A program made the position numbers and the translations under genes. A stretch of DNA of 64,000 bases from Takakia lepidozioides. Taxonomy: Eukaryota > Plantae > Bryophyta. A model generated the notes under the pieces. That model saw nothing but the letters and a program-made list of their open reading frames with translations, did no database searches and was not told the origin of the DNA. The first letter of the stretch is position 1; every line of letters begins with the position of its first letter. Shown here in pieces: positions 35,410-64,000 of the stretch. The stretch covers positions 35,774,001 through 35,838,000 of the forward strand of contig CM060732.1 of NCBI GenBank assembly GCA_030704615.1, in the 5' to 3' direction.

Positions 35410-38400
35410 CTACTTATTTACCTCAAAGGATCCCGTACTGACTTCAGAGTGTTGTGGATCCTTCCCTTTGAGACAAAGATTGGATATAGTGCCAATTACA
35501 GCCTGCCTGTAAGCTACCTCAGTCGAAACAAACTCCACACCTTTGATTGAATCCACTGCTTCAAGGGCATTCTTCCAACTCATCGCATCAATACTGTGGT
35601 CTAGGGTAGTCCATTCTTCCCACTTTCGAAACCAGCGGTCCCGATTCCTGGCAGATTTGAAGTCTGTGTAGGAAAGCTTGAAGAAAAGAGGTAGTATCCT
35701 TAGATTGGAGTCTGGTTTTTGTGCGGAGTCAATAAATGCAGCAAGTTCCATCATTGGCCTCTTGCTTTCTGTGAAGAACTCCTCGGACAGCACTACAGCT
35801 GCCACCCGGCACTGCTTTAGCACATCAAACTGTATAAGATTAGTAAATCTCTCACCCTGAGGTGATTTGTCATGGTTGTCAAAGAAGGGGTTGAGGTGGA
35901 TCCTTTCCAAGTCCATGCGCAGCTGCTCTACAAACTTCCTTTGCAGCCCACTGTAGATGAAGAAGATGTCATTGCAAGCAGGTTCCAAGACAGGATTGGC
36001 TTGCTTCAATTGCAGGAGGTTAAGGGCATCCCGAGCACCCCATGCATTGAGCTCTATTGCAATGGCAACGTTATGCACAAGGGAAGACATGACCTCGATC
36101 ACCGCATTCATGTTGGCATCACTAGGAGATTGAGCATCCTGTATGAACTCCATGACTGTATCAACAAGAGTGACATCCGACACACTTTTTGCCACTTCCT
36201 CTCTGATGTGCAGGAGGGCCTTCAATTCACCAATGCTGGGCTTCTTTGTCAAGTATTGACAGGTAACCAAATCAAGAACCTTCAACTTGGACAACCTACT
36301 AAGATCAGGTAGGTGGGTCAATTCTGAACAGTATTCACACAAGAGGTGGAGCAGCTGTAGCAGGTTGTCAACACCTTGTAGCTCAACAAGGGCAACATGT
36401 CTCAGATGGAGTTTTTCTAGACTGGTCAAGTCACCCAGCCCTGTGAGCTTTCTCAGACATGGACAATCCAGCACAAGCAGTTCTTGCAAATTTAGCAAGG
36501 ATCTGAGACCTGACAGCTCTTCGACCTTGGGACACCACTGAACATGGATCTTCCACAGAGCAGTCAGCTGGTTCAATGTGGGAAGTTCTGTGAGATGAGG
36601 GTGATCAATAATCACCAGCTCATGAAGCCTGGTGCACTTGTCAAGCATGGGTGGTTCGGATATTTGAGAATTTCGCAGTTCAAGAATTTCCAGTGCTGTC
36701 AACCACTGCATGTCTGGCCATAACTTCAAGTTCTCGCATCTTGTCAACCTTAGCCATGCAAGTTGCTCGAGACTGTCCATTCCATCAAGTTTTTGCAGCT
36801 CCTTGCAACACCTGATGTCCAAGCTGCGTAAGCAGTGCATTCCTTTTAAATCAAGCTCAATCAATGCGGAAAGGTTTTCAAGCCGGAGCACCACAACGTT
36901 TGAACATAGGTGCAACTTTGCTTTTGATAAACTCTGAAATGTGCCATCAATCAAAGCAAGCCTTTCAACTGGCCAGCAATTTCCCACTGGGGATTTTTGA
37001 AGCTCTCGAGGTACTTGATCTGAGCCAACTTTGTGAAATAAACAGGCCCTTGTCTGGAAATCTCCTTGGTTCACTTCTATCTCCGCGAATTCCCGGTACA
37101 AACTATGCATCCTTATTTTTGGGGTACAATCAGCCTCACTTTCCAAGGAGCCGGCCTCATCATCCAATAGTGTCGCGGTCTTCAAGCCCTTCAACTGCAG
37201 CCAAAAATTGTCAAGCAAATATACTGGAAACAAAAACAGATAGAATTACCAAGGATTCAATGACGCTATAAGCACACCTATAGCAGTAGTTATCACCAAT
37301 AAACTAAGCTCAGTTATGACCCCATTTTCATGACATTGTGCAAGTAAGACAGAAAACATGAAGGGGGGTCACAACTTTAAGGTTACGCCAATTTCAAAAC
37401 TGCTGGAATATTTGTGCTTGTCAGTAGAGAATGAGTGCCTGAGCTTAAACACGTAAGAAGCTTTGGTCCTGCCCAAACTCATGCCCACCCTGCGTTTCAC
37501 AGAATGTAAAAAACTTACATGCTCCTTGATTTCCTCTTGAGAGACTGTGTGTACAAGTGCCAACCATTTACACACATCCCTCTCAGTTTCCAGAGCCTTG
37601 GGCTTATAAAGAGCCACATCCATAAAGATAAGCCGGTCCATATAAGTGGGCAGTGTATCATAAGCAGAGCGAAGAATGGACATAAGGGGGTCGTCCCTGT
37701 CTGGCGAAAGTTTGACATGCAAGTTAGTGAGGCTTTCATCCCACCTCTGTTGATCACTGATTACACTACGCAACTGAGCTCCTAATGCCTTCAATGCCAA
37801 AGGATGAAACTGTCTTATGCTTGCTAGCCTCCTCTCAAAAGATCCGTAAGCAACTGCCTTTTTTATAAATTGCTGCTCGTCACGTGTAAAGGACGAGTAA
37901 AGACGGCCTGGTGCGGCTACTTGGAGGAATAAACCGATGGCATCCCTCTCCTCTAGATCTGGAACGGCTATACAACAGCTGCCATCAATGCCAAGGTGAT
38001 AATGTAGGACCTCTATACTCCGTGAAGTCACCACCACCTTACTCCCGTGACCGAACGATATGGACAGGTAAGCCATTGCTTCTTCACTAGATCCTTGGCT
38101 CTCTTGAACACTGTCTAGCGCCAAAAACACCTTGTACCTGGGCATCCGCTCCTTCAAGAGATATCGTCCCTGGATGCACAAGGAAAATTAACGAATACAA
38201 ACAAGACCTTATAAAATCTTTGTGGTCTTACATTGACGAATGTTCAGCTTACCTCACACGGTATAGAGCAGTTGTGACTCACAGTGTCCAGCGAGCATCG
38301 AGAGTCTTCTTGTTAGGTAAGCAGTACAAGGGAGCTTGACCCAAACCAACCAGAAGAAGCACTGTGTGACCAGCTGACAGAGGGCATTGGCGCATTCCCA

Positions 38401-39598
38401 ATGACAACGTGATCTCAAAGTTTCTCGACTCATTAGTGTATGATTAGGGTTTACACTTCAGAGAATTTGTGATCGGTGCTCAATACTGCATGCGCAAGTG
38501 GTTGTACCTGAGCTGTATCTGTCACCTTTTTCAATACTTCTTCGTCTGCCTCCGTCAGCTCCCTCAACACTTTCTTTTGTAATTCGATGGGGCTCAGAAG
38601 GGCACCAAGCTCCGCATGGCACACTTTGCCGTTGAAACTTGGGAATTGGTAGTTACACAGACTCTTGCACAACGTCGTCTTTCCCATCCCGCCCATGCCA
38701 TACACACCTATTGTACATGCATTTGTCTCCGCACTCCTCTCTGGAACTGGGTCTAATACCGAGAGTACGGCCTGTCCGTCAGCAAATTGCAAGGATCACT
38801 AACATAAAAAGGAAACGATTCTTGCACACTGGCATACACATACTTAGAAAATGAGCCTAGTAAGAGGAAACACAGTGGTCACAATTGTCTTTTGCCAGCA
38901 GGCATTAGTGCTCTGCATTCACAATTTAGAACATACAAGGTCAAACAACGATGTCATTGCATGCACCATACAGCCCTCCGTCCGTAATGAAGTACCTTGC
39001 AAAGCCGATTTCTTCCTTGGACGTGAGAATCATCCCATCGAACATCTGGAGGAACCAGCCTGCAAATAGCTGCAACTACAGCCTTCTTGTAAGCCACCTC
39101 ACCTTCGGAAGCAAACTCCATACCGTTTATTGAATCTAACACTCTAAGGGCATTCTTCCACCTCCCTGTGTCAATCCTGTCGTCGAGCTGCGCCCATTCT
39201 TCCCACCTTCGAAACCATCTCTGTCGATTTACGGCAGATTTGAAATCTTTGCAAGAGATCTTGAAGAACAGAGGCAATATTTTGATGTTGGGATTCGTTG
39301 ACTTTTGTGCCTCAGCAAATATAACCAATTCCAGCATTGGCCATTTAGTTTTTGTGAAGAACTCCTCGGAGAGTACCACAACCGCCACCCAGCACTGCTT
39401 CGCTGCCTCAAAGATCAGGTCTGGGAAATTCTCACCTTTTGGCAAACTGTCAGGGCGCATGTCAAAGAAGGGGTTCAGCTGCACCCTTTCCAAGTTCTCA
39501 CAAAGCTCTTCTACGAAATCCTTCTGAACCCCACTGTGGCTTAAGAAGATTTTATGCTTCGTTAACAAGGCTGGAACTGACCCCCTGCAAATTATCAT
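35410..39598 (-). CDS. TIR-NB-ARC-LRR-TIR NLR immune receptor (start codon uncertain)
   Basis: Exons ~39598-38996 (TIR1 IFLSHSG..VVVLSEEFF..WPMLEL), 38771-38508 (P-loop GVYGMGGMGKT), 38169-37519 (kinase-2 VFLALDSV, RNBS-B GSKVVVTSR, GLPL-like HPLALK), 37194-35410 (MHS, LRRs, TIR2 AVVLSEEFF..RPMMEL). Phase-0 GT-AG junctions; the frame is open throughout. Confidence 0.9.
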
Positions 39599-40623
39599 GA
39601 AAGATTCAATTAGCTAGTGTATGTACTAGACGTTATACGCACACAGAAGTGGGTTCTAGTCGAAATCTATGACTATGTGCTCATAAGTAAGTTTAGTTCA
39701 AATCTTGAGAAATCTGATGAATCTGTGAGGTCTGTCCTTGCATTTTGCTGCTTTTCTGTCGAGTTCTTAAGTAGAGTTCTTAAATTGAGCATCTCGACAT
39801 ACACCACGACTCCATTTACACCAGTTGAGATCGGTGATACTGACGAGGTTTACTAAGAATGCAGGAGAGATGCAGGATATAAAATATTGAACTCACTCTG
39901 CGGTCATAAGAGTCTCATATTCAACTGTGTCAGGAAGATCGCCTGCCTTGGTAGCAATTTCCTGAAATAAACCAATTGGAAGCTTACAAAGATATATCAA
40001 TCGACCAGTTTTGAGATAAATAGGCATGCCATGTACAGCAAACCCTTGAACAGCAGAAGCTACTTCATGTAATGAGCCCACAAATCTAGATAAACGAGGC
40101 AGTGACGATCTGTCATTAAGAGAAGATTCTTTCAAAAAATAACACGCATAAATATAACTTACATTTGGAAACCTCCAACAGCTTTTGATCCAGCCAGAGA
40201 AGAACAATCCATCAACATTGTTGGCGCAATAGCATATCAATCTATCGACACTGAAAAAAGTCTTCCTTGTAGGACAGCTGCGACGGAAATGGGACCCCAC
40301 GAGAGGATTCCGTCCGGGCCCCAGGCCAACCTGCCAACCCATACACCAGATGGTCGTTAGCCTTCTCCCTCAATGCACTTAAATATCAGCATTCTTATAC
40401 TAGGTACAATGAACAAGATTGATATAGATGAACTTAATTAGCTAAATCAGTTGCGGGATCCCCATTGCAGCTCTGCACTGCCAATTTGCATTCATAAAAA
40501 ATACGAACTGGCCGTCGCTTGCTCTCAATAGGAAGATTACAATCAGACGCTTCCGGCATATATTAACCTAATTTTCAAGACGAGCTCAATCTACAGTTGA
40601 AATCCGGGCTCTCTAGAGTCCCC

Positions 40624-40692: not shown

Positions 40693-43640
40693 GCATAGGC
40701 TACGGCAAACAACGTCTTACGAGTCCATTCTCTCTCTGCAGCATTTGACGCTTTTGAACGTGAAGAATCTAGATCCAATAGAAGACTCCTTTCACAAAAA
40801 GAAGGAAGTGTCCATCCGATACTATGCTGAAGTTGAAGAGGATTAGATGGGGATTAAATAGTCCGTTACCTCTCTGCTTCGAATCTGCTGCCAAAGCGGG
40901 TCCATATATGAACTGTTGTGAATGCTCCTTTTTCCCCCAAGAAACTCACCCTCTAAATCTCTCATATGCTTCCAAACTTCTCTGTGAGACGCAACCTAGT
41001 CAGTTCTTATCGCGTCCTGTATCTTATATACAATGGTTAAGACCATTGTCGAGCCCGAAATCTAACCCATATCTAAGGAGCTTGCTAGAATCAGAAAGAG
41101 CCTTACACAAATTAGAGCAGCCTGGATCACTTCTTGGGCGGACAGATTCTTAGGCCAATACAATGAACTCGTCTTACAGGTCCAATTGTACCAGCGTCGG
41201 CCAGTTTCTCAGCGCAATCATGAACATCAATGTCCCGCAGCAGGTCCGATACAGTACACTGCCTCTCCTTCCTCTACTAGATAGGAGCTCTCTCTCTCTC
41301 TTCTTTCTTCAATTCGTTCTCAATCGAGGATCTACTGTAGTTAGCCCGCAAGCCCGCAGGAGCCGAGAAACGACATAGGCTTGCTTGCAGGAAGCGCTGC
41401 TGCTCGACCGCGTTGACAGAACTGTCCAGTTGACAAACTCCTGGATTACTTAATAACCCAGATTAATTACTGGATTCCTTAACTCTGTAGTGATTAACTT
41501 ACAGAAGTTTCATAGCATTTTGTCGGTAGAATTTCGTGTCTTCTAACTTTTTCTTTTTCTTTTTGGCGACCATGAAAAGTTTCGGATATTTTTATTGTTT
41601 TTCCACAAGGCACACAACACCGTAGCAGCCAATGAAACAAATGCCGATGAAGTTGCCACCTGTGATTATCAGTATACCTATCAGTTCAGCCCCATGCATT
41701 CACACGCCTGAATATCTTTGCTACTCTATGCAGAGTGAATGTAGAAACAAGTGCCTGTAGAGACCTTTACAAAAGTAGAGAACCTATGAATCGATCTTAA
41801 AGAGAAGCACTGATTGACGGAAGTGGAGCGACAATGCTTTGGAGGATTGCTTGACATGTTTCCAATTCACATCCTTGTCAAAATCTGGCCAGGCAGTGGA
41901 CAGTAGCATTGCGGTGACTCCACCTGGGGAGGGTTGCTTATTCCATTGGCAGTGGTGAGTGGAGGAGGTGTGGCATACTAGGATTCCTTGATGGGCGATT
42001 CCTTGATGGGCCCGGGTTGATGTATAGGTCTTTTCTCAGAGCAACCCTCCCTCGTTCCAGACCTAGGAGCGCACTTTCCCGTATGAGCATTCCGTACACG
42101 TATAGGTTTAGGGAGGAGTTACGAGGTACCCACTTAGGATATCCCCCTAATCTTGGATAGGGGAGCTGTCCTGCAGTGCAAGGCCATTTATTCTTTATTT
42201 TTTCTACTGAGGAAGCGAGCCAGACTGTATTAAGAAATATTCCGCAATTTATTTTATTTTATTTTTGCAATTTGCAGAGCAGAAAATTCACAAAGCTGTC
42301 AGTGGAAGCTCATATTTGGCTAATTCAGGCCAATTCTGTCCAAATTCCACAGGAATATGCCTGGCCACCTACTCCAATTTTTTGGAGAATTGGTGTATTC
42401 ATTGCGTGCAGAGGGTGAACCTTTCAAACATGGCTGCCCAAGATTAAGGCAGCGGGCAGCCTAAGGTACAGTAAAAACAGTATAATCTAATTTTATTCAT
42501 CATCTAAAGTATTATTATTGGGATAGCCGGTTAGGCATTTTTATGCTTAATAAATTTTAAAACAAACTGATAGATTAGGCCATTAGACATGATGTTCACC
42601 AAACTATGTCTTCGAATTAGGCAACCTCATAATATAACATGAAAAGAGAAAAAAATTGATCTGTTTTTCAAAGGAAAAGAAAAAGAAAAACACTTGTTTG
42701 TGGTGAAGGAACTCCTGAAATCATGGAGGATGTACAGTCTACCATGGATAAGTGTTACCTCTGGATACCCAAAATGTAACACTTTTAGAGACATTTAGCA
42801 AGCATCAGATAGAGAGAGGAAGATTTCAAAGTACATTCAAGTTCTTTTTCATCTTCACATAGCTTCAACTTGAAAGCTTTCCTATAACCTTTCTATCCGT
42901 GGTCAACATTAGCATAACAGAGCTTGTAGTTATATGATCAACTGGTTGCAGTCCTGTAGTAGGAGTTTGTGTCAGAGGAAAGTGAAGAAGGCCCGTCAGC
43001 TGAGGGAACTAGTCCAGAAGAGGGTGAAGGAAGTTCCCTCCTCCTGCAAAACTTCCACTTAAAGCCCAATAGGATCACTACAATAGGATCACTTCTCTAT
43101 AGCAAACAAATTGTAACATTTATATAGATTAGAGCAATTTTATTCACATGAAATACACTCATATAGTGGAATTGTTTGCAAATAAGAATCTAACATTTAT
43201 TTGTTTATTGTTATTTAGTGTCACCCAATTAGGTGGAATAACTAATGAGCCACCAATAATGGTGGTTATTATATACGCGGCATCTCATTTTACAATATTA
43301 GCGACCTTATGGCGCACGCGCAAGCTAGCCGGTGGCCACGCGGACGGACGCCCGGCTCCAGCCAGCCGTTGCGCACGGTCGCCCGCGCTCCGCCGTGCCC
43401 CCAGTCCACTGTGTCAGTCCCCTCACGTCCACAATGTCAGTCTACCCGCCAAGTCCGCCGCGCCTGAGTCCGCTTCCCTCCAGTCCGTCTGCTGGCCAAT
43501 CCGCTACGCCAGTCCCCCAAATTCCAGTCCGCTGAGGACGCCGGATCCGCACCATCCGTTCCTAAATACCATCTGAGCCCTCCATTTTTAGGGCATGAAT
43601 TCAAACCTTATCCCTGCAACCTGCCACTTGCCAGTAGCCG

Positions 43641-43822
43641 CGAACGTGCGCACTGTTGCGCAGGGCACGTTGTCGATCGTGTCCAAGGTATTGCGGCGCG
43701 TTTCTTGCAGGTTCTGAAGCGTATAATCTGTATTGTACAGGGCATGTTCGTGGAAGCAGAAGGCGATGATATACTGAAAACGAAAAGCCCGCTTATACGG
43801 CCTCTTCGACAATGTTTGCAAA
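43641..43822. repeat. Left copy of a ~180-bp inverted repeat (partner 59492-59672)
   Basis: Manual alignment gives about 22 substitutions plus 1 gap (~87% identity) in inverted orientation. Confidence 0.85.
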
Positions 43823-43856
43823 CACCAAAACCAGGACCCTTCAATGTGAAGGACCT

Positions 43857-44564
43857 TGTCGTGCGCATACATATCGCTACACAACTACATCGCTGTCCAA
43901 AACCACACAACACATGTGCACACCACACACTAGTATACCACTAGTCTACCACTAGTCCAGCCACTAGTCCAACCACTAGGCTACAACTAGTCAGTCACTA
44001 GGCTGCCACTACGCTGCCCACTATGGCAGTCACTAGTCCACACAATGATAAAGAAGAAGAATACAAGCACAAGCTCATGCGAGCTCACAAAGCTGAAGCA
44101 TAAACTCATGCATATATAACCTCATCACTCAAATACAAGTCAAGCCAAGTGCACCCCACGCCATGGGGAATCCACACTACGGCGCCATAGCTAGGCGCGG
44201 TGAGGCTCAACTCGAGAAAGATGAGCCTCCCGCGCTTGCCGTGAAGATAACCACTCCAAGGCCTAAATCTGCCTTGACCCCTGGATTGACACTTGGGCCA
44301 ATCCCAAATGTCAATATGTAAAAGCTAGCTATTTCCTAGCTAGTTTCACACTAGTGGTAAAATAACTTGACAGCTGTCGTGCGCATACATATCGCTACAC
44401 AACTACATCGCTGTCCAAAACCACACAACACATGTGCACACCACACACTAGTATACCACTAGTCTACCACTAGTCCAGCCACTAGTCCAACCACTAGGCT
44501 ACAACTAGTCAGTCACTAGGCTGCCACTACGCTGCCCACTATGGCAGTCACTAGTCCACACAAT
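43857..44564. repeat. 3' terminal repeat block: identical 190-bp direct repeats (43857-44046, 44375-44564) around a 328-bp spacer
   Basis: Both copies start TGTCGTGCGCATAC and appear identical by eye; each contains an array of CCACTAG-like short repeats. 44372-43857 read on the minus strand has TGTC...GACA termini. Confidence 0.9.
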
Positions 44565-44822
44565 CGCCCCCCTAGTTGGTGCTTAGGTCCCTCTAAGTCC
44601 AGGTAGCCACAAGATGTGATAGTGACCATAGCCTCACTAAGTCCTCCACCACTATCCCTACTACACTCAAACTCGATAGATCAAGAGGCCGGGTGCAAGA
44701 GTTGCCCCATCGTTAGTCGTCGTCTTGCAACCTGTGAACTTGAGCTTGGGATCTCATGTATTGACTCCTATGAGCTTGGCCTCCCATGTCTTGTTAGCTG
44801 CCTCCAGTCATGTCCACTGCCA

Positions 44823-47785
44823 CTATCCCAAGCAGTGTGGACACAACCAATCTCCGTCAGGAACCTTCTCAAGAGGTGGTGTCAAGCATCCCATATGCCA
44901 ACCCCTTGAGCACCGATCACACACCAGCATGGTGGCTGCCCCTTTGGCAGACCCACAGAGCATGCACCTCAAACCTGCAGGTACCACTGCCAAGTTTGGG
45001 TCAACTCTGCCATCGACATTGGGAAGGTGACATGGCGCACAATTACGCACATGGTCTTTCCAAGTCATGCCATCCCGACCCTCTAAGATCAGGACCCCTG
45101 AGGGCAACACCTCTCGAACCCTCAGAATAACACGCCCTGCAGTAACATCCAGAGTCGTAGGAGCAGTCTGCTGCAAATAAACATAGTCACCAGGGCTAAA
45201 CCTCCGAACCCCAGGACGATATCCTCCACCACGTATAGTGGCATACCTCAACGTATCACGGTGCTGTGCAATGGCAAGGTTCTCAAAAGCCATGGGCATG
45301 ACTTTCTTGAACAACTCTGCACGCTGATCACATGCACGTACCCACACGTCCGGATCGTCAAGGTTAAGGACTTGAGCAGTGTCCCTACGAATGGCTGCAG
45401 GCAAATCCGGCTCTCGGCCAAAGAGAAGGAAATATGGTGAGAAGGAGGCAAGTGATGCTTGTTTGCTGAACCTGTAGCCCATGGCTAACCAAGGAACCTG
45501 AAGATCCCAATCTCCTAGGTGTCCCTTCTGCAAGCCATACTTGCGCAAACCCTCTTCACCGTCTGAACAACTCTCTCTGCTAAGCCATCGGCCTCAGGAT
45601 GATCCCGAGAAGTGGTGCGGTGGTCTATCAAGGCTTTATCACACAAAGCCTGAAACTCCCCCAAGAACTCTCTCCCTTGGTCCGTGAGTACCTCAGCTGG
45701 AGCACCAAATCGGCTAAGCACACGATCCAAGAATGCATACGCAGCCCCCTCACTAGCCTTGTCAGGCAATGGAACCAACTCAATCCACTTGGAGAAGTGC
45801 TCCACCATCACCAACACATATCTGTGGTGGCGCATAGTCAGTGGCAACGGTCCTGCGAAGTCAAGACTCCACCTGTAGCCCAATCCCATGATAGGTAAAG
45901 GATGCAACTGTGGTGTAGGGGCGTTGAATGAAGCACGCACCCTGTCACACACCATGCACCTAGCCACAAACTGTTGCACCTCTGTATGCATACCACGCCA
46001 CCAATACTGCCCCTGCAGTAAACTGTGAGTGCGTCGCACTCCAAAATGCCCCAACTCCTCATGGGCATGCCGCACTAACCGTGCACGCTGTGTGGGGTGA
46101 GGCACAATCCTCACCCGACCATCCTCCCACACTCGAAGTAGGTGTATCCCCTCCCACTTGAACCTCTTGGCTCGTTGCAGGATCCGATCCCTCTCCCTGG
46201 CAGTCACAATGGCTGCCGTGTCTCCCGTGCGGAGGTAGTCCAACACAGCCGAATCCTCATGTATATCTCTGGCACCACCTAGCTCATCACTAGCCTCAGG
46301 GTCCTCAGACACTCCGTCTACAGTCATCCCTGTTGTAGGTCCAATCTGACCTCCCGATGCCAAGATACACAAAAATGCAGATGCGTGCCATCCCGGCACC
46401 ATCTCCTCGTCCGTCTCACCATGCCACCGAGCTCCAGTGTCATCCTGCTGGCTCATGCATGGATTGCGACTCAATCCATCCGCATCCCGATTGACCAAAC
46501 CCGGTCGATGCACAATCTGAAAGTCATACTCCTGGAGTATAAGTGCCCACCGTGCAAGCTTCCCCGTAAGCTTGTCTGACTCCATCAACCACTTGAGTGG
46601 CTGGTGATCCGTGACAAGGGTGAAAAGATTGCCATATAGATAGCACCTGAAGTGTGCCACGGCCCACACTGCAGCTAAGCACTCTCCCTCATATGAGCTG
46701 TACTTAGCCTCTGCAGCGTTGTTCGAGCGGCTAACGTAAGCCACTACGAACTCTCTTCCCTCATCATCCACCTGTGTGAGCACCACTCCAAGCCCCAGCA
46801 TGCTCCAATCCGTATGCAGCTGAAAGGGACGCCCCCTGATAGGTCGTCTCAAGATAAGCGCCGAGGTCAACCTCGCCTTGAGCTCTTGAAAAGCTCGTTC
46901 CTGCTCATCTTCCCACTGCCACTCCTGGTCCACCTTGGTCAGCTTGGTTAGAGCCTTTGCAATGGTACTAAATCCCTTGACAAACCGTCTATAATAGTTT
47001 GCCAACCCCATGAAAGCTCGAACTCGGCTCACATCCGTGGGGCGTGGAATTTGTGCAATGGCCTCTACCTTAGTCTGCTGTACCCCCAATCCTCCAGGAT
47101 ATATCATGTGACCCAGATACTCAATTTGGTTGTGGAAAAACTTGCACTTCCCCGGATGCAACTTCAATCCGTGCGCTCTCAAGCGCTCCAATACCACCTG
47201 AAGGTGTCTCTCATGCAATCGTCAGACCAAGTCCGATAAGTATGCCATGCCAACACCAGAGGTGATCTTTGATGCCATCGGGCATGCTAAGGCCTTTAGC
47301 ACTTTGGATTTACGATCCGGATATCACCAGTTGCCAATCAAGGAGGCGGACAAGCAGAAGACGGCATTCTGGGGATCAATGAGCCGGCAAGGATTGCTTA
47401 TCAGTGGCGGTTCTTACCATTTGGGCTTAAGAATGCTCCTGCAGAGTTTCAGAGAGTCATGGATAGGATTCTAGCAGGGGTGGACTTTGCTCGGTGCTAC
47501 ATAGATGACATCATCATCTTTAGTGTTACGATGGAGGAGGTAATCACCGCACATACGTCTCTCCGTCCAATTGCCATAGACATCCTTCTTGGCTGGCATC
47601 ACTGTGGCTGAAGCATACTCTCCACCAGAGAGCTCCACCAAACCTGCCTCCCAGAGATCTTGAGTCCTCATCTGAATCAAAGACCTCTCCATGTCACTGT
47701 ATCTATAGGGTCTCCGAAAGATTGGCGTGTCAGTGGCCAACTCAATACGGATCTCTTGACCCTTCAGTGCTCCCAAGTCCTTCAA
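44823..47785 (-). pseudogene. pol: Gypsy pol (RT-RNase H-integrase-PHD), disrupted by frameshift and internal inversion
   Basis: PYRYS..SATVMPAKKD..RMCGDY; YIDD (inverted, on +); RNase H TDWS..YEGECLA..TDHQPL..ADGLSR; integrase HHCC (HEELGH..CMVC), D,D,E core (LDFAG, TDQGREF, LAER); PHD CMLC..CDRC..H..C..WLCPHC. Confidence 0.93.
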
Positions 47786-48229
47786 ACTGAAGGCAAAGCA
47801 ATTCCTGTAAGCCCTCAGGAACCGCCGTATACGTCGTCTCTCTCCTCCGGTGACAATGGGTCCAATGTCAGGCTCCCAATTGTCCTCCGTAACTGCAACC
47901 TTAAGTCCAGTGGGCTTAGAGGTAGAGGACGCGTCCCGTGGTTGCTATGCTGCAACCTCTTGAGCAGTACTCCCTACCTGCTCAGTCAATGACAAGCCTC
48001 ATCCTGCCCCATCATCTCATCCTTGAGGACCTCCTCAACCCGAGAAGAAATCCCCAACCTCATCATCACAGCCGCCTTGGCTGCCAACTCCCTCTGAACC
48101 TCGAGCACCTCCCACGTGTGCCATGGATGCATGCACACCCGTGGTCCTCACATGCTCGCCCCCACTCACTGCCTGTACCGTCTCGGTAGGCAGAGAGACC
48201 ATTGAGGGAAGTGTATTCCGCACTCTGCG

Positions 48230-48856
48230 TTGCTCAGCCAGAGCCAAGCTGATAATCCAGGTCAAGCAATTGAGATCCATTGCTTGCCCCAACACTTGAC
48301 GACGTGATGCCTCAGAAAGAGACGACACCGCCGTGGTACCAGTGGTAAACCCATTGCCCGCTCACGCTCGTCAGCATTAGCTCCACTAACTGCTGCAACT
48401 GAGCATCCCACAGGAGGCCAGGTCCACTATCCCGGAAAGCATGCGATCCTGGGAGCTGAGCAGTGTAGGTAATGCTGCTCGTGGTTGACCCACCTTGTTG
48501 ACCACTGCAAAGGCGAACGGTCATCGTGTCTCACACGTTGAGACTGCCTCCCTGTGTCCAGAATGTTATCCACTGTGAGATGTGCTGGCCGCTGCACCCC
48601 ATCAAATGCACGCTTGAGCAGTGCGGGTAGCATCAGTTAGTCCACCATAGCCGTGGACGATGAGCCCGTGACCCCACTGTAGCTGCATCTAGCAACACTG
48701 CTGACCCAAGCCACGACCGACTTGATGCACACTGGCCATCACCCTGGCCCGAGAATCGCCCATCCAGTGGCACATTCTCCAAGATGTATGATGAGATACA
48801 GCCCTTGACTGAAGCCTGCAAGTGGCGCAAAACCCGCACCATCTCCCAAACAGACC
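48230..48856 (-). pseudogene. C5 cytosine DNA methyltransferase domain (DNMT3-like), C-terminal half, frameshifted
   Basis: Across small frameshifts: GLF-WEMVRVL (cf. DNMT3 GRLFFEFYRLL), motif VI ILENV, motif VIII LDAA..GSRAHRPRLWWTN (cf. AHRARYFWGN), motif IX NADERERAMG, motif X SRRQVLGQAMD. Motifs I-IV would lie in the N gap. Confidence 0.82.
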
Positions 48857-49356
48857 NNNNNNNNNNNNNNNNNNNNNNNNNNNNNNNNNNNNNNNNNNNN
48901 NNNNNNNNNNNNNNNNNNNNNNNNNNNNNNNNNNNNNNNNNNNNNNNNNNNNNNNNNNNNNNNNNNNNNNNNNNNNNNNNNNNNNNNNNNNNNNNNNNNN
49001 NNNNNNNNNNNNNNNNNNNNNNNNNNNNNNNNNNNNNNNNNNNNNNNNNNNNNNNNNNNNNNNNNNNNNNNNNNNNNNNNNNNNNNNNNNNNNNNNNNNN
49101 NNNNNNNNNNNNNNNNNNNNNNNNNNNNNNNNNNNNNNNNNNNNNNNNNNNNNNNNNNNNNNNNNNNNNNNNNNNNNNNNNNNNNNNNNNNNNNNNNNNN
49201 NNNNNNNNNNNNNNNNNNNNNNNNNNNNNNNNNNNNNNNNNNNNNNNNNNNNNNNNNNNNNNNNNNNNNNNNNNNNNNNNNNNNNNNNNNNNNNNNNNNN
49301 NNNNNNNNNNNNNNNNNNNNNNNNNNNNNNNNNNNNNNNNNNNNNNNNNNNNNNNN
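48857..49356. other. Assembly gap (500 N)
   Basis: Run of N; the true length is unknown. Confidence 1.
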
Positions 49357-49559: not shown

Positions 49560-50420
49560 CGAAAACCATCCAGCTTCACAGACCAAAAAAATCCCTCTAA
49601 TATTTCGGAATATGGGGTGAACCAGCGTTGTCACATGCGATTTCTTCTTCTGTCGATCTGTAAAACATTGGAAACATTGCATTCCTAAACACTGTTTTTT
49701 GAGGATTAATAAGACACTACAGAGGGAATGAAATCTCCTTGATGACTTACTTGTTCACGTCGGGCATAGCTGTAAGAAGCCTAGCGATGTCGTTTCCAGG
49801 ATCCAAACCATTGCCTCCATAGCAACATGCTGTCTTTGTCTTTCGAATGGTGTTTCTGAATGTATCCCATCCATGCCAGCAATCGGTGGTTGCCGTCCCA
49901 GACGTAGAACATGTGGTTGCAGAATTGCTGGGTGTTTCTTTCCCATCATGAGGCCCAGCTCGAACTCCTCATTGGCATCTTTCCAGCACTCATCCCAGTT
50001 ATCACTGATCTCTGGAGACACTAATGTGCTTTCCCATTTTATCCGTCAGTGACACATAAAAACTTGTGCACCCAGTCTATATCCATGCACAAAATCACTC
50101 TCCAATTTTGTTATGTCATGGGAAAGAGGTGGACGCACAACAGGCATTGATATCATCCGGCACAGAGGTATGTCCAGATGCCCTCCAGATACGAGCATGT
50201 CCCTTATAACCTCTTGAGAGTTTATCTTCTGGAATGACATGAGTTCTTTCACCTTGTCAAGGTAGTGCACTTCGGATTCATCTGCTTCATATCTGTATTC
50301 TCTGAGCTTTTTGCGGACTCGTCCCCATCTCCAGATCATTTCCCCTCTGATCCTGTAGGCTTCGACCTCACAGTTTTCTGCACGATGCCATTCAGTTCTG
50401 ACTGAGTGATTTGCAAATAG
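49560..50420 (-). pseudogene. ParB/Srx-like domain ORF (transposon-associated), frameshifted
   Basis: MPVVRPPL..DI.KLESDFVHGYR, then MFYVWDGNHRLLAW (DGNHR at 49883-49897), typical of the ParB N-terminal fold. Lies divergent from the MULE transposase. Confidence 0.6.
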
Positions 50421-51324
50421 TGAATGGCGGTAACGACCATCACTCTGTCTCAAGGAAACTCACCATGAATGGTGTGAAAGAATTCAACACATCTACACAA
50501 GCAAAGCTGAGACTGCCGTATTCAAAACAAAAGCGAGAGCGATAGCGAACGGCGTTAACGACAATCACAAAAGATAACGACCTGCCGGATCGGTGTTGTG
50601 TAATGACATACATGTGCAACTGATTGGTGGCAACGACATTCAGTGTAGTTTAGGGCGGATAGTAAGTGCAGACTCTCTCTTCAAACACGTATGTACATAA
50701 ATCTCATGAGGAGAATCGAATGGCGTTAACGACGCTCGCAATTCAGTAGTTCCTGCTAAAGAAGGGAAGAGGAAGGACTCCTTGAAAGGCAATCAGACAG
50801 ACTGTATGATCTGAACACCAGTGAATGACTGTACCGATAGTCACCAACTCATTGTGCTGTAAACCCTTCGCAGAGGAGTAGAAAGCAAATCACCTTTGTG
50901 ATGGTCGGTAGCGACAATCCCTGTCTGGGACATTCCACTCAATCTCTACGCAACTTTCCAGGTGCGCATGATCATTGGTAGTAGTATATAGATACATTTA
51001 CTTAATCTGCAATCCCATTCTCAGATCCTGTGGCATGCTTCCAGGAAGTCGGCTTTGTTTTTGGGTTTATTGATGAGGTTCTGGTTAACGGTTTTACAGC
51101 TGCCGACACTGCACCTAGGGATACTCTGACCACTGGGCCCACAAGAAAAGTAATTAAAATGGACGGCTGCATATCTGGAAAGAATAACATAATATGCACA
51201 GTCGTTATCTAAGCTTCCTCCGCCATATTCTCTGCTCATTCTTCAACTGTGTTCTGGAGACATCAGTAAACCGATTTACACTAGATCTGCGATAACAAGG
51301 TACAAACGTACGCGAGGAAGGAAG

Positions 51325-54300
51325 ATGGCTTCCTCTGAAGCGGAGTTCTTCTCTGACGACAAACCAATGCCGTTCTCCCAGGAAGTCCTTGACAATGGAT
51401 TTGCAATTGTTCTGGAACATGTCTTGGCTACCCGTTTTCAGCTGCAGAATGGCTCCATCTTTTTGGAGAAAGAGGTGTACGATCTTAAAGGGAAGTTGGT
51501 GAAATATTCTTTCCAAAACCGTGATGAGACGGCTCATATCAGCCAGTGGAGAGTGCATCCTGGTCGATACAGAGTACTTGGAGAGCCTCGGCGAAAGTCC
51601 CTTGGGTCATATGTGACGCCCGAGACTGCTGCTTCGGTCGTTGAAGACAAGAGGGAGGTGGTGGTGAAAAAAGAACAGACGTCCTCCACTCCAATCGTTG
51701 AGCTTTCGGATTCTTCCGATGATGACATAAGTGAAATTCCAAATCCAGTCCTTCCTACTGTGGTTGGAGAAGCTGATGAAGAAGAGATTTGTAGTGTCAT
51801 TCCAAAATTGCGGGCGATGGGAGGAATGGCTAGATTCAAAAGTGAGTTGCGGGGAATTGATTGGGAATCTTTGAAGCAGGTGCCTGTGAAGTTCTTGCCG
51901 GAGACTTTTGATGGCGATATCCTATTCGAGCTGCCTCCTCCTCCTCGAGTTGGAGGTGTAACAATCATGATGCATGGAATGGACAAGAAACACGACGGGC
52001 ACCCGTGGTGCAGAACAAAAACATCCAATATTCAGAATGATGACAAGCTTGTTTTCAGGAGGACAGTTTGTAATGGACACCTTAGGTGTGATAATTTGAA
52101 TTGCAGACACTTTCTTCAGTCTGGGGTTCATAATCAAAGCGAATGGGAGGGTCTGGCGGAAAATCCATTTCAGCCTGGGACTACCCCTCCACCGGCAAAC
52201 ACTTTCATCTGCAAATTCTGCAAACTTGTGCCATCCTGTTTGGCGCTCTGCGGAGCAAGAATGTACTATGTTGTCCACCGTTTGAATACAATGACGAGAG
52301 CTTGTGTGCATTTTGGATTCCATAACCATCCTGTCTCGAAGGGGGATTACAGGGAGAGTGTTGAGACAGTATCGAGGTTGATCAAACAGGAGTTCGGGAG
52401 AAACCCATCCGCAACAACATCTGCAATTGCTCTTGGCGCAAGCAAGTCCTTCTTGGAAAGCCATATTTTGAGTGAATGAGATTCTGTGGGGACTAAACTT
52501 GACGGTGCAGCATTGGACCTGGTCATGGATCATTTATCCACTTTAAGTTCACCTAACATTCGGCATCAGATCAATGCATTGAGAATGGGCTCTGGGATCA
52601 GAGGCTACATAGACAATATTTTGGAATTGAAACGAGTGAGCAAGTACGATTACATCCAGGACAATGTATTCCCAGGTCAAGGTGCCATCAAAGTTTTTCT
52701 TTTCAAAATGTCGACTGTTGGGGAAGGCAGTGGGGTTAGCCTCGTGAAGCGGATGCAGAAGACTAGGGACTTGCAAAACTGTTTTCTTATGTTTGATCAT
52801 GTGAAACGAGTGAAGGATTGGATGACAATGGCTTGTCATGTCTACGATCCAGTGTACCAACGAGTTATGACAATTGCAGTTTGTGACATGCAATCCGAGG
52901 ATACGGAATCCCAGAAGCTCATGTGGAATTCCCTGATACGTGTCATGGGCTGCCATCTCCAAATTTCGCAGGTTTCATGGCGGATAGTGCTCAAGCAAAT
53001 TTCAATGCTGTTCGTATTGTCTTCGGATCGGGCGACCCAAAAGTGCCTATGCCAGGAAGAGAGCGTACATGTCTATTCCATTGGACACAATCTCTGGAAA
53101 AACATACAAAGTCGGACATCAAACCAGAGATGCAGACTCAGCACCGTAAATTGTGCAAAGAGTACAAAGATGCTAGAACAATGAAGGAGGCGGACACTTT
53201 GTTCCAGACAATTCGTGCATGGTGGTTCTCTTCTGGAGCTGCATCACTTGAGAGTATGAGAGCATTGGAAGATTGGCTGGCGTTTTGGCACTTCCGGTAT
53301 AGACAGTGGGGAGCAGCCATGACAATGGTACGAGGCTTCTATTTCATGCTTTATTCATACATTTGCTTTCCATATTTTTGACTCATTGCTTTCTTTATGT
53401 TGTTTCCTGTGCACTGTTCTGAAGTGTGGTTATCCTCTTTGTAGAACATGTCCATTGAGGAAATGGCAGACATGCCATCTTGCAATTTGGCAGAAACTGT
53501 GCATAACGCATGGTTGCAGCAGTCTGGGAAACGAGGTCGGGATTTGTATGTGGCAACAACAGATGATTTGATACGTGCCTTGCAACAACAAACTCGATAT
53601 CGTGATTTCTTACGAGGTGGGGTTGGTGGCAAGGGTCCGGACAAATGGGAGTTGATGTTGCGTGCTGCAAACAGATCTGGGGATCCAATCAAGATAGCAC
53701 GAGCGGTGAGCATGTATGCCTAGGGAACGCCACTTGTTTCTAGAGTTCCACATCTTGAAGGGGAGGAGAGATTCGGCTCCTGTAAGAGGAAATTGAACAC
53801 TCCACCTGGTTCGGATTCAGATTCCCACAGGGCAGACCGTGATAACTTCTCGAAGCCTCGTGTTCCCCTGCATGACAGCTCCATGTCCGGAACCTCCAAC
53901 ACGACGGCAAGCTCCAGCATCAAACAGTGCCACTGAAATGGTGCAGGAGAGAAACAACCCCCTTGATGTGCTTGAGTCCGCATGCCCCGACCACGTTTGG
54001 CACATAGAACGCACAAGTGTAGGGTCTCGTGTGAAATGTACAGCGATCAGGGCAACTAATTTCGAGAAGTGCACTTCATCTATATCCAGAGGTGGTGCCC
54101 GAACTCCTGCTTCGACTTTCACGGGCTTGATGCGTCCATACGGTCAACCAGAAGCCAAGAACCACAAGTTCTGGTTCTGCGCAGATGATTGTGCCAGATG
54201 TGTGCATGGAACTGTGCGTCCTTCCGAGTGATGAAGCCAACTCCTCCAACCGTTTGGCCCGTGAAGGTGGGAACACATCTCAGCTTTCAGGAGATTGAAA

Positions 54301-54806
54301 TGCTGGAGGAGGCAGGTTTTTCCCTTGCGAGACAACCCCAACTCCATGCATGTGCTACTACTTCTGCGTCCTCCCGGGTCCCCCCGGCGAATCCTGACTT
54401 GTGGCCAACCAAACGAGATGGAAAGCTCGTTCGGCGTTTCCCTCCAACCGCTGAACACTTTGGCAAAGTGGAGTCCGCAAGAATGCTCCAAGCTCGTGTT
54501 GGAAGCACCACGGAAGTACCCGATCTAGGATATGGTCGGGTATTCACAATCATCACTTCCACATCTGCTGTTCATGACAGGACCTACGACATCACGGTTT
54601 CCAATTTCCCCACATGTCCTGATTTTGTGAATATGCTATCAACCAGTTTGGGCAAGAGAGGTAAATTCATAGCCTGCAAACATTTGTATTTCATATTTTT
54701 GAGGAGGATGGTTTGCGATCCCAAACGTGACAACTTCATTCACCAGGCCACTATGAGTTTCAACGAGGTCGATACTCTTTTGCAGCGGGATACAACACAT
54801 GGGTAG
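51325..54806 (+). pseudogene. Mutator-like (MULE) transposase with GCM/WRKY-like Zn finger and C-terminal SWIM, disrupted
   Basis: DGHPW..CNGHLRCDNLNC..HFGFHNHP; catalytic-type MFDH, FMADSAQA, CLFHW, CNLAETVH; SWIM-like PTC..ACKHLYFIF. In-frame stops and frameshifts at ~52479, 52950, 53723, 54231. Confidence 0.78.
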
Positions 54807-59289: not shown

Positions 59290-59500
59290 CCATTCATAAA
59301 ACACTTGAATGAATGACATAACGTAAAAGCCACATTCCCAACTGAATGGTTGCTGGGGCACTTCGTGCTGGTGGAGTTGAAAGACACAAACAATCTCCTG
59401 CCACTCTAGTGACGAAACCGAATAGCCCAAACACTCTGCACGCGCAAGCAGCTTCCGAATCCATGGCAGAATAAATGGAGCATCATGCAGATTTGCAAAC
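59290..59500 (-). pseudogene. Ulp1/SENP-like cysteine protease C-terminal fragment (transposon-associated)
   Basis: VPQQPFSWECGFYVMSFI matches the Ulp1 QQ..[DE]CG motif; adjacent to the MULE transposase, as in KAONASHI-type MULEs. Confidence 0.6.
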
Positions 59501-59672
59501 ATTGTCGAACAGGTAGTTTAAGCGGACTTTCCGTTTTCAGTATATCATCGCCTTTTGTTTCCACGTCCATGCCATGTACAGCACAGAGGACACGCTACAG
59601 AACCTGCAAGAAACCCGTCGCAGTACCCTGGACACGATCGACAACGTGCCCCGCGCAACATGCGCACGTTCG
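59492..59672. repeat. Right copy of the ~180-bp inverted repeat (partner 43641-43822)
   Basis: See the left copy. Confidence 0.85.
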
Positions 59673-60183
59673 AGGCAGCTACTTCCTTGTCGCCAAATGG
59701 TCGCCAAAAGAGAAGAACACTTAGTGGGTCGGGATCAACCCTTTCACTTCATACTTGACCAGAGCTGACCAACCCTGGTCGTTCATACCGACCGCGATCC
59801 AAGATATTCAGGAACCGTCCATATATTAAAATGCAACGGTCCGGATTGTTTGTTTAGACACTTAGGGCTGGAAATCCTTGGTGGTTTTCGTTCCGGGCCG
59901 GGCCAATACGAACGCCCGATTGGCGAGGAACCCGGACGGCACCTTGGCTGTCGGCGCCTCTCGTCTCGCAGCGCAAACCCTGAACCCTCTCCACACATCC
60001 CTGTGCGCAGCGCGGGAGGAATTGAAGCTGCTGCCTTCTCCTTCTCGTGCTGAAGAATTCTGTGGGAGGCAGCTGCAGATCAGCTGTGCAGCAGACGTGC
60101 ACAGGAAGCGGGATTCGTGGTAGCAGCTGACGATCGTGGCGTCCAGAAAATGCACAGAGGCGGGCATCCGCAGATTACTGCGG

Positions 60184-63100: not shown

Positions 63101-64000
63101 CGAACAGGTCGTGCAGGGAAAAAAGGGACTGCCATCCTCATGTATTCAGATCATCAAGTGCAGTCAATGCGGTTAATAGAAAAGGATGTAGGGTGTAAAT
63201 TTGAGCAAATTGGAGCTCCTGGCATGAGCGACGTAATGCTTGCCAGCACTGAGCAGGTGACACAGATGGTAAAGCGTGTAAACCCTCAGTTGACCCAGGT
63301 TTTCCTTCCAACTGCGGAGTCCCTTTTGGACGAGCAGGGCCCGAGTGCTTTTGCTGCTGCCCTTGCACATATAAGTGGATTCAGTCAGCTACCTCCGTCC
63401 CGCTCTCTCCTCACTTATGAGGCGGTATGTATGGATCACACTGCTTCTTAATCTGTTAGTGGCCCTTCTCATGGTTTCAGAGATTTCAACTCACAGATAA
63501 ATAGGGGTAAGAGGGAGTTGTGAAAAGGTTGTCAAAAGACAATTAGATACAGGAATAATACCAAGAGTCTTTGGTGTTAGTGTGTGGAAGCCCCAATTTA
63601 GAAAGATGACGAGGAATTATGGGAGCAGGTTTGGTCTGTCAAAATGTGGTGGCTCTCTATAAGGCAAGTGAGACTTAATGCTAGCTAACAGACAAGGCTT
63701 TGAGTAGGGTGCCCCCTTTGCAGAAGGGTGATGCTGTGCCTAAATTACACAGGATGCATATGCGATGTGTGTGTTGCTACTAGATGTACTTGGGCACACT
63801 GATAGTTGCCAGAGCAAAGTAATAAGGACTGTTGTTGGTTTTGGATTTCAGGGATGGACTACATTGCGGCTGGTCCGCACACAGAGTGACTTGGTGCAAC
63901 CCACGTCAGCACGGCTTATTAGTGGGATGTTAGCAAGCATCTACAAACCAGCAGCTGACAAAGTTGGAAAGATTTCCATGATTGATGATGCCAGGGTGAG
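60184..64000 (+). CDS. RH3: Plastid DEAD-box RNA helicase, RH3-like (3' end beyond the window)
   Basis: Exons 60184-60741, 61160-61296 (AKTGTGKT), 61492-61909 ([18 protein letters not shown]), 62135-62233, 62374-62598 (TDVAARGLD), 63047-63424 ([23 protein letters not shown]), 63852-~63995. N-terminus is transit-peptide-like. Confidence 0.9.

Follow-up and report, generated by a model that had tools for sequence, protein, structure and literature searches.

The closest described relative of the element analysed here is KnitGypsy-Dnmt3 of the alga Klebsormidium nitens (de Mendoza et al. 2018, PMC5890265), a Gypsy element with a DNMT3-like domain. In the available text of that account, methylation of the element's own cDNA is already proposed, and the domain failed to methylate DNA in yeast, a result its authors call inconclusive because DNMT3B failed too. 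SymbioDIRS-Dnmt3 (PMC5890265) and the EpiLTRs (10.64898/2026.05.21.726589) are likewise retroelements with a cytosine methyltransferase. According to the accessible parts of these sources, SymbioDIRS-Dnmt3 has A-coding-B-A-B repeats like those found here and proven CG activity, but carries a tyrosine recombinase instead of a DDE integrase, whereas EpiLTRs carry a DNMT4-like enzyme, DAM and a chromodomain. The Chlamydomonas elements REM1 (cited in PMC6673714) and Gypsy-7a_cRei (10.1101/2022.06.16.496473) encode Gypsy polyproteins with a PHD finger that has been proposed to guide where they insert, and an intergenic bias is reported for the second; these differ in LTR layout, and the accessible text mentions no methyltransferase in them. 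An earlier note on this DNA had mentioned methyltransferase-bearing retrotransposons from dinoflagellates and a charophyte alga and suggested self-methylation of cDNA. The 2018 publication describes this kind of element; the self-methylation idea and Gypsy PHD fingers are not new.

The window, a 64,000-nt stretch of the moss Takakia lepidozioides (contig CM060732.1), holds on its minus strand the 3' half of one Ty3/Gypsy copy, comprising the C-terminal half of a DNMT3-type methyltransferase, reverse transcriptase (RT), RNase H, integrase and a PHD finger. The features are the following.

48857..49356, no strand: assembly gap of exactly 500 N; the assembly lacks gag and protease as well as motifs I-IV of the methyltransferase, including the catalytic PC
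48245..48854, minus: DNMT3-type C5 cytosine methyltransferase, C-terminal half, with motifs VI and VIII, target-recognition region, motifs IX and X; at least seven frame changes
47948..48244, minus: variable linker from methyltransferase to stop; weak profile match, E 0.08
47939..47947, minus: TAG CAA CCA, a stop in the RT frame with a CAR-YYA hexamer, predicted leaky from sequence comparison
47100..47944, minus: RT with an internal inverted segment (Pfam RVT_1; translation)
47217..47539, plus: inverted RT segment holding the YIDD motif (RVT_1 match on the plus strand)
46526..46915, minus: RNase H (Pfam RT_RNaseH, E 3e-35)
44970..46096, minus: integrase, interrupted once by a frame change near 45549, with H2C2 finger (Pfam Integrase_H2C2, E 4e-16), rve core (Pfam rve, E 4e-14) and C-terminal part
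44832..44966, minus: PHD finger, terminating the integrase frame (Pfam PHD, E 3.6e-11)
44564..44573, minus: polypurine tract; an identical tract precedes repeat B in relatives
44375..44564, minus: terminal repeat B, first copy (TG...GACA), 100% identical to the second copy over 190 nt
44369..44378, no strand: GACA-GC-TGTC, a perfect palindrome where B meets A; identical junction in L005, L022, L037, L042, L081 and L082
44047..44372, minus: terminal repeat A (TGTC...CA); partner expected at the unassembled 5' end
43857..44046, minus: terminal repeat B, second copy, identified by identity to the first; element end ...GACA
43853..43856, minus: AGGT as read on this strand, expected from relatives to be the 4-bp target-site duplication; 5' partner outside the window

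The element is a Ty3/Gypsy retrotransposon of the KnitGypsy-Dnmt3 kind, present at high copy in a moss. The Gypsy order protease-RT-RNase H-integrase is found, the last three in the window and the protease upstream in relatives. No Chromo domain is among the Pfam matches after the integrase, where the PHD finger stands instead, which rules out chromovirus membership. Summed contig depth over the element far exceeds that of the flank in three of four sequencing runs, a value that is not a copy number. With KnitGypsy-Dnmt3 it shares, in the available text (PMC5890265), the Gypsy domain set, an unpermuted DNMT3-like domain before RT, DIRS-like repeats and purifying selection. K. nitens protein KFL_009030040 is among the matches, and the RNase H-integrase tree (FastTree, outside Gypsy lineages and host DNMT3 left out) places it in one broad group with the element, at support 81.

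The methyltransferase motifs reported in the earlier note were all located on the minus strand upstream of RT, in canonical order: ENV (VI) at 48779-48771, AHRPRLWWTN (VIII) at 48665-48636, ERERAMG (IX) at 48369-48349 and RRQVLGQAMD (X) at 48304-48275. The profile search proposed there gave a divided outcome. Pfam returned no methylase match in four single-frame pieces of the region, since most of the score of that model comes from N-terminal motifs, which are missing from the window piece. A custom profile built from 18 natural relatives, with no window sequence, was scanned against the entire window, cut into 3013 six-frame pieces, and the top eight pieces all lie within 48854-48035. Seven are collinear with the profile (E 3e-22, 5e-21, 2e-12, 1e-5, 2e-5, 0.02 and 0.08) and the eighth (E 1) covers a frame-shifted part of the first; the best match elsewhere in the window has E 0.99. 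Among solved structures, the profile is closest to DNMT3A/B/C (E 4e-19) vs DRM2 (7e-7) and HhaI (3e-5), and the structure predicted for relative P0172 matches the folds of DNMT3A/B. Motifs I-IV precede VI-X in relatives, and DRM2 aligns only with profile positions 34-160, at its C-terminus, which rules out the permuted DRM type, as the note had maintained. Judged by sequence, the window domain is an unpermuted DNMT3-type methyltransferase with predicted methyl-transfer activity. The window copy shows motifs VI-X; the catalytic PC is seen in L041, L042, L062, L081 and Marchantia protein P0062. Naturally unbroken relatives retain GWPCQ, ENV and AHRPR; motif IV varies among relatives (PC, EC, SC), and ENV is often ENT.

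The window copy is indeed frameshifted, as previously noted, but the clustered frameshifts may partly be assembly error at a contig end. The catalytic PC, which had been placed in the gap, is absent from the assembled part, yet beyond 48857-49356 there is no match to any of 120 relatives and no copy of a terminal repeat. Hence, the PC motif, gag and protease are best described as missing from the assembly, with the gap as one candidate location. Contigs of other copies extend beyond 48850. The inverted segment at 47217-47539 is peculiar to the window copy or its assembly; contigs of other copies switch strand there.

The domain is a family trait, as examination of other copies showed. Among the 37 informative loci (those with sufficient upstream DNA and an RT match), 33 carry the methyltransferase over more than 200 aligned residues; the other four also lack a protease match, and three of these are cut inside RT. 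The PHD finger is present in 57 of 59 loci. Gene models of Marchantia, Riccia, Calypogeia and Sphagnum carry the methyltransferase, as do algal proteins at the equivalent place, and among the 120 protein relatives listed, 74 have it in the same ORF. These data refute the idea that a host DNMT3 fragment was captured once, or that the assembly is chimeric here, an explanation suggested by the heavily broken state of the piece and its position beside the gap. The equivalent domain occupies the equivalent place in those loci and in liverwort, moss and algal proteins, unbroken relatives exist, and contigs from four runs span the methyltransferase-RT stretch at similar depth (X7 covering the 3' part only); the probability left to this explanation is negligible.

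In two unsaturated pairs out of six, compared among unbroken relatives and not with the window copy, the methyltransferase presents dN/dS of 0.107 and 0.068; the corresponding values are 0.02-0.04 in RT and RNase H and 0.2-0.6 in the linker, whose identity among these relatives is 20-56%. By these ratios, the domain is under purifying selection in the unbroken relatives. Its position is not uniform: 51 of the 120 relatives listed, chlorophyte ones included, have the order RNase H-methyltransferase-integrase and form one group in both trees (support 97 and 99; FastTree, same exclusions as above), and in 23 of the 120 the methyltransferase is fused to RT with no stop between. A scan of viral contigs yielded no relative of the element, and a scan of genome contigs yielded two loci in a single cyanobacterial bin, interpreted as contaminating eukaryotic DNA.

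The earlier note had proposed testing whether gag to PHD is a single ORF, which does not hold. In all four unbroken relatives of the window's clade (L041, L042, L081 and L062), ORF1 and ORF2 share a frame and are separated by one stop; ORF1 ends with the methyltransferase, and RT-integrase-PHD follow the stop. The methyltransferase and the PHD finger are thus on different products. This also differs from KnitGypsy-Dnmt3, whose protein is continuous in the available text, with methyltransferase and RT in the same Pol ORF; here one chain would form only via read-through. Since the upstream frame of the window copy is broken, frame continuity across the stop rests on the relatives.

The contexts TAG CAG TTA, TAG CAA TCA (twice) and TAG CAA CCA (L061, L062 and the window) keep TAG-CAR-YYA in six divergent elements, with variation confined within CAR-YYA, despite synonymous sites nearby being close to saturation (dS 1.2-1.6 in RT). 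Chance occurrence of this context was computed as 0.006 per 140 nt. Among the variants listed from four runs, none is present at 5% or more in the nine positions 47939..47947. CAR YYA after UAG is the experimentally tested read-through signal of TMV, according to the text accessible of PMC2754532. Given this agreement, the TAG-CAR-YYA stop is probably read through. In 47 rows compared, TAR-CAR-YYN is in frame at the stop site in 37 and strict CAR-YYA in only seven; the commonest family among loci has CAA CCC, which is not YYA (23 TAG and 6 TAA of 47), with an ATG directly behind.

That ATG makes re-initiation possible, and one may hence suppose that the stop is genuine, with RT-RNase H-integrase-PHD made through re-initiation, an internal promoter or splicing. 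Tca2 is a precedent, showing that local signals need not bring about read-through of an in-frame gag-pol stop (PMC2194720, as far as its available text goes). The first codons past the stop contain no ATG in the window, L041, L042, L061, L062 and L081, however, and frame and CAR-YYA are conserved at base level; we consider a genuine stop improbable, and under it the methyltransferase would still come with Gag. In TMV (CAR-YYA), MuLV gag-pol and SIRE1 (PMC2754532, PMC2194720, accessible parts), an in-frame stop also sets the ratio of upstream to downstream protein. Unlike in those systems, the stop here follows protease and methyltransferase, which places an enzyme on the abundant side.

The ends of complete relatives read A-internal-B-(2 nt)-A-B with the GACA-GC-TGTC palindrome, and a short A-internal-B form also exists, for which B-B recombination in already inserted copies is a possible origin. 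The window shows B-A-B, and the full DIRS-like A-coding-B-A-B pattern is present in L010, L022, L026 and L077. Repeat A opens all 15 loci whose 5' end is visible, with B before A in none; two identical full LTRs were not encountered, relatives showing A ... B-A-B or A ... B. Exact 4-bp target duplications flank 8 of 11 relatives (three long form, five short form). Together with the integrase, of DDE type by its rve match, they rule out DIRS/tyrosine-recombinase membership. A two-LTR circle cut at either palindrome is also ruled out, as it predicts A-B-A 5' ends (0 of 15 seen). In four elements inspected by eye, no TGG of a tRNA primer-binding site follows the 5' A. Tentatively, the integrase might make its CA-3' ends by cutting the GACA-GC-TGTC junction with a stagger of 2 nt. 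In foamy virus (PMC1180852, accessible text), a palindrome joining two element ends can similarly be cut by integrase into processed ends, but the moss junction is a constant feature inside the integrated element, has a 2-nt spacer, and its cleavage is a prediction. The available account of KnitGypsy-Dnmt3 (PMC5890265) does not describe target duplications, the palindrome or a short form, and PHD has no mention in that text, the K. nitens model being partial.

The literature searched contains no report of a methyltransferase ending ORF1 at TAG-CAR-YYA, of such repeat ends with palindrome, 4-bp duplications and short form, or of a methyltransferase between RNase H and integrase. Nor was a described land-plant family found there, in agreement with the earlier note, although the family may be catalogued in Repbase, Dfam or REXdb.

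The same note's assignment of a PHD finger to the integrase end was corroborated by the Pfam match. The nearest solved PHDs are those of CHD4, KDM5B/A PHD1, PHF12, ATXR5, DPF and PHF21A. Strict H3K4me0-reading PHDs have an N-terminal acidic residue, which the element's PHD lacks. It might tether the integrase to H3 tails without K4 methylation, away from active promoters, a reading to which we give slightly less than even weight. The PHD travels with the integrase and not with the methyltransferase, which weakens the proposed coupling of writer and reader.

Taken as a whole, a KnitGypsy-Dnmt3-kind element with a leaky stop, abundant methyltransferase and cDNA methylation is the explanation we favour, if modestly. 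The methyltransferase would likely be produced with every Gag-protease chain, and RT, RNase H, integrase and PHD only upon leakage of the stop. Lying upstream of it, the enzyme would be abundant in the particle, where, once packaged and released by the protease, it would likely methylate new cDNA. Whether as camouflage or self-limitation, methylation of cDNA before integration, with new copies arriving pre-marked, is a serious candidate falling just short of an even chance. The 23 stop-less fusions and 51 pre-integrase placements imply that excess enzyme is not required family-wide.

The methyltransferase could instead act, guided by the PHD, on the genome or insertion site as a mobile writer/reader. 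Surplus nuclear enzyme could reach chromatin, and the RNase H-methyltransferase-integrase(-PHD) order could leave writer, integrase and reader joined in a single chain; in the window's clade, however, a stop and three enzymes stand between methyltransferase and PHD, and the K. nitens methylome is ordinary and plant-like in the available text (PMC5890265), so that we regard this as unlikely. CpG observed/expected is equal in element (0.52) and window (0.49) and says nothing for self-methylation. About equally unlikely is retention of the domain mainly for binding or shielding cDNA (or RNA). Variable motif IV, frequent ENT and the inactivity in yeast (PMC5890265, same text) fit such a role, but the catalytic Cys, Glu and Arg motifs persist in very distant relatives, the fold matches DNMT3A/B, and related SymbioDIRS-Dnmt3 domains are active on CG. 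The favoured explanation extends to a broader account that we hold possible but rather doubtful: an ancient green-plant lineage, from chlorophytes to mosses and liverworts, combining DIRS-like replication with a Gypsy integrase that cuts an internal palindromic junction to rebuild the ends, PHD steering, and a bryophyte leaky stop loading particles with active DNMT3 that methylates copies before landing.

Since 2018, the question has been why retrotransposons keep an enzyme that silences them. With a high-copy family in mosses and in liverworts such as Marchantia, this question can be posed in organisms with genetics and methylomes. The stop position predicts dosage, with methyltransferase at Gag level and integrase-PHD rare, and how a DDE integrase can work with split direct repeats may be tested on the junction palindrome and the target duplications. 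Among bryophyte gene models labelled "DNA methylase", many are in fact these elements, and DNMT3 counts can be inflated by them. If the ancient-lineage account is true, a high-copy transposon would supply land plants with de novo methylation.

The methyltransferase of the window's Ty3/Gypsy element is real and is a family trait, and the element represents, in a land plant, a variant of a kind already in print. Four methyltransferase motifs lie in canonical order on the minus strand (48779 to 48275), as the earlier note had claimed. When a profile of 18 natural relatives was searched against 3013 six-frame pieces of the window, the eight top-ranked pieces all came from 48854-48035, seven of the eight in profile order. 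The proposed Pfam check, applied to four single-frame pieces of this region, gave no methylase match. The solved structures closest to the profile are DNMT3A/B/C, followed by DRM2 and bacterial enzymes, which bears out the claimed likeness to DNMT3 over DRM; DNMT3A/B are also the first structural matches (Foldseek E 7e-16) of a model of the related protein P0172 (pLDDT 76.5). Pfam confirms RT, RNase H, integrase and, as claimed, a PHD at the integrase end.

With the RNase H-integrase as query, 82 related loci were obtained, 37 of which had an RT match plus enough upstream DNA. The methyltransferase is present in 33 of these 37, being thus a fixed family trait rather than a one-off capture, and the four loci lacking it also lack a protease match. 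The PHD is present in 57 of 59 loci. The loci mostly belong to one family and hence do not represent independent origins. Of six pairs compared, the two that are not saturated give methyltransferase dN/dS values of 0.107 and 0.068. Eight loci (L008, L026, L029, L032, L035, L051, L079, L080) contain internal duplications or additional 0.8-0.9-kb pieces inside or close to the methyltransferase and RT; collapsed repeats in the assembly may have created some of them.

Among the best 120 of 678 longer protein relatives of the RNase H-integrase frame, domain mapping places a methyltransferase in 74 (in 23 it precedes RT, in 51 it sits between RNase H and integrase) and a PHD in 104. The other 46 have no methyltransferase within the ORF; the closest of them, P0001-P0004, start shortly upstream of RT. 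Methyltransferase matches are weak (E 1e-7 to 1e-17) in Tetrabaena, Haematococcus, Pseudoscourfieldia and a long-branch Tetraselmis group, and strong in Chlamydomonas eustigma (4e-64). The best 120 of 386 matches to the Marchantia domain include Marchantia polymorpha, M. paleacea, Riccia, Calypogeia and two Sphagnum species, with no vascular plant named among them. In FastTree trees, the window's element clusters with L062, Marchantia, P0001 and Coleochaete (support 98), adjoining L041, L042 and L081. Elements with the domain after RNase H form one group both in the RNase H-integrase tree (97, including three rows without the domain) and in the methyltransferase tree (99; 82 rows with at least 250 residues). 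The Tetraselmis-containing group (P0095, P0099, P0104, P0108, P0111, P0113, P0114, P0117) has a very divergent, long-branched methyltransferase before RT, possibly a replacement from another source.

Some database entries for these relatives call for care. The Marchantia gene models P0241 (Mp_7g09570), P0062 (MARPO_0091s0058) and P0208 are fragments of this element, one of them fusing methyltransferase remnants with the integrase end and PHD, and such models can be mistaken for host DNMT3 or PHD genes. L081 (1-9285, CADCWO010000201.1) and L082 (CADCWO010000148.1) are eukaryotic family members in a bin labelled Synechococcales cyanobacterium, and protein P0204 is labelled Obscuribacterales; these labels are likely contamination, producing false bacterial methyltransferases. 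The ends of L081 overlap by 127 nt, so its assembly is circular, comprising one B-A unit (A and B being terminal repeats) and the internal part.

The contig ends at 48856, running into a 500-N gap, and the sequence past the gap within the window has no match to the element. The earlier note described this copy as frameshifted. The breaks are present and concentrate in the 900 nt closest to the gap, while farther away a frame of 568 codons stays intact and the two copies of B do not differ; an error at the contig end is therefore no less likely a cause than decay. In public runs, contigs from other copies disagree with the window at most frame breaks and at an RT inversion, among the variants listed. 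In three of the four runs, the element has a far higher summed contig depth, which is not copy number, than its flank does.

The suggestion that gag to PHD forms a single ORF did not hold. In four relatives whose frames are unbroken across this region, the ORF that holds the methyltransferase and the one that holds RT-RNase H-integrase share a frame, divided by one stop: TAG CAG TTA in L041, TAG CAA TCA in L042 and L081, and TAG CAA CCA in L062, the last also found in L061 and the window (47947-47939). Synonymous sites are close to saturation among L041, L042 and L081. At the stop position, 37 of 47 rows have TAR-CAR-YYN and seven the strict CAR-YYA; 29 rows of the commonest family have CAA CCC then ATG, and in the ten remaining rows the first stop lies at a different place, one codon farther on in three. 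Across the nine stop-context positions in four runs, no variant at 5% or above appears among those listed. The window clade shares CAR-YYA after UAG with the TMV read-through signal (PMC2754532, in part), leakiness here being predicted. The methyltransferase would then be produced at Gag level, and the integrase-PHD rarely. According to the available text of PMC2194720, MuLV and SIRE1 employ in-frame stops, and Tca2 warns that such stops need not leak.

At its 3' end the window's element has a polypurine tract (PPT), then B (190 nt), 328 further nt and a second identical B, and in complete relatives the order is A-internal-PPT-B-(2 nt)-A-B. The B/A junction palindrome GACA-GC-TGTC occurs in the window and two other families; the alternative spacers AC, AT and GT are transitions of GC. 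Foamy virus integrase, which cleaves such palindromes, offers a precedent (PMC1180852, in part), and DIRS-like repeats with Gypsy domains were already described by de Mendoza et al. (PMC5890265, text). In the commonest family, the long 3' end is found at 13 loci and a short form, A-internal-B, is scored at 26, counts that include duplicates of single insertions; L079 and L080, among the 26, are eroded fusions. The short form is equally well explained by recombination of one B copy with the other. The 5' end begins with A at 15 of 15 loci, and target duplications of exactly 4 bp were found in 8 of 11.

The solved PHDs nearest to the window finger are those of CHD4, KDM5B/A PHD1, PHF12, ATXR5, DPF and PHF21A, which recognise H3 tails that carry no methyl group at K4 or R2. 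In the window PHD, neither the cage Trp typical of K4me3 readers nor the N-terminal acidic residue of strict K4me0 readers is present. Retrotransposon PHDs have been termed widespread (PMC6673714, in part), and Chlamydomonas Gypsy-7a is noted, in the text available, to carry one.

Other features of the window are as follows.

11873-13204, plus strand: RING-H2 ligase gene
26471-28744, minus strand: PPR-E-DYW editing factor gene
35413-39613, minus strand: resistance-like gene encoding TIR, NB-ARC and LRR domains plus a further, C-terminal TIR
43637-43822 and 59492-59676: 186-nt repeat in two oppositely oriented copies that are 87% alike
49755-50459, minus strand: broken ORF
within 49755-54806, past the gap, plus strand: broken transposase-like stretch with Cys/His motifs (Pfam only Transposase_24, E 0.16)
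60124-63451, plus strand: plastid RH3-like DEAD-box helicase

The TIR-NB-ARC-LRR and PPR-DYW genes are consistent with a land plant; the former has two TIR stretches that are 72% alike. The helicase exon has 68-74% identity to Sphagnum, Physcomitrium and Ceratodon proteins; among the matches listed, liverworts follow at 62-63% and most vascular plants at 56-62%, its best E-value match being a long Buddleja model at 57% identity. We take this pattern to point to a moss only distantly related to these three moss genera. We take the Cys/His motifs to be MULE/SWIM-like. The retroelement insertion adjoins the first copy of the 186-nt repeat.

The published kind is defined by KnitGypsy-Dnmt3 of Klebsormidium nitens; the text of that paper (PMC5890265), on which our comparison is based, suggests methylation of the cDNA and records no activity of the K. 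nitens methyltransferase domain, and a PHD or target duplications may appear in its figures. Later papers, in their available text, mention streptophyte Gypsy-DNMT3 elements with land plants unnamed there. No bryophyte description was found in the literature, bioRxiv supplements and repeat libraries being outside the search, or by term searches in the accessible text of PMC6317226, PMC6453930, PMC7466625 and 10.1101/2021.11.30.470311; nor did the literature, in the text available, yield split repeats or a read-through signal in such elements. What is new here, as read from sequence, comprises the layout around a predicted leaky stop, a second order of the domains among chlorophyte relatives and the anatomy of the ends, and these make the function of the methyltransferase testable.
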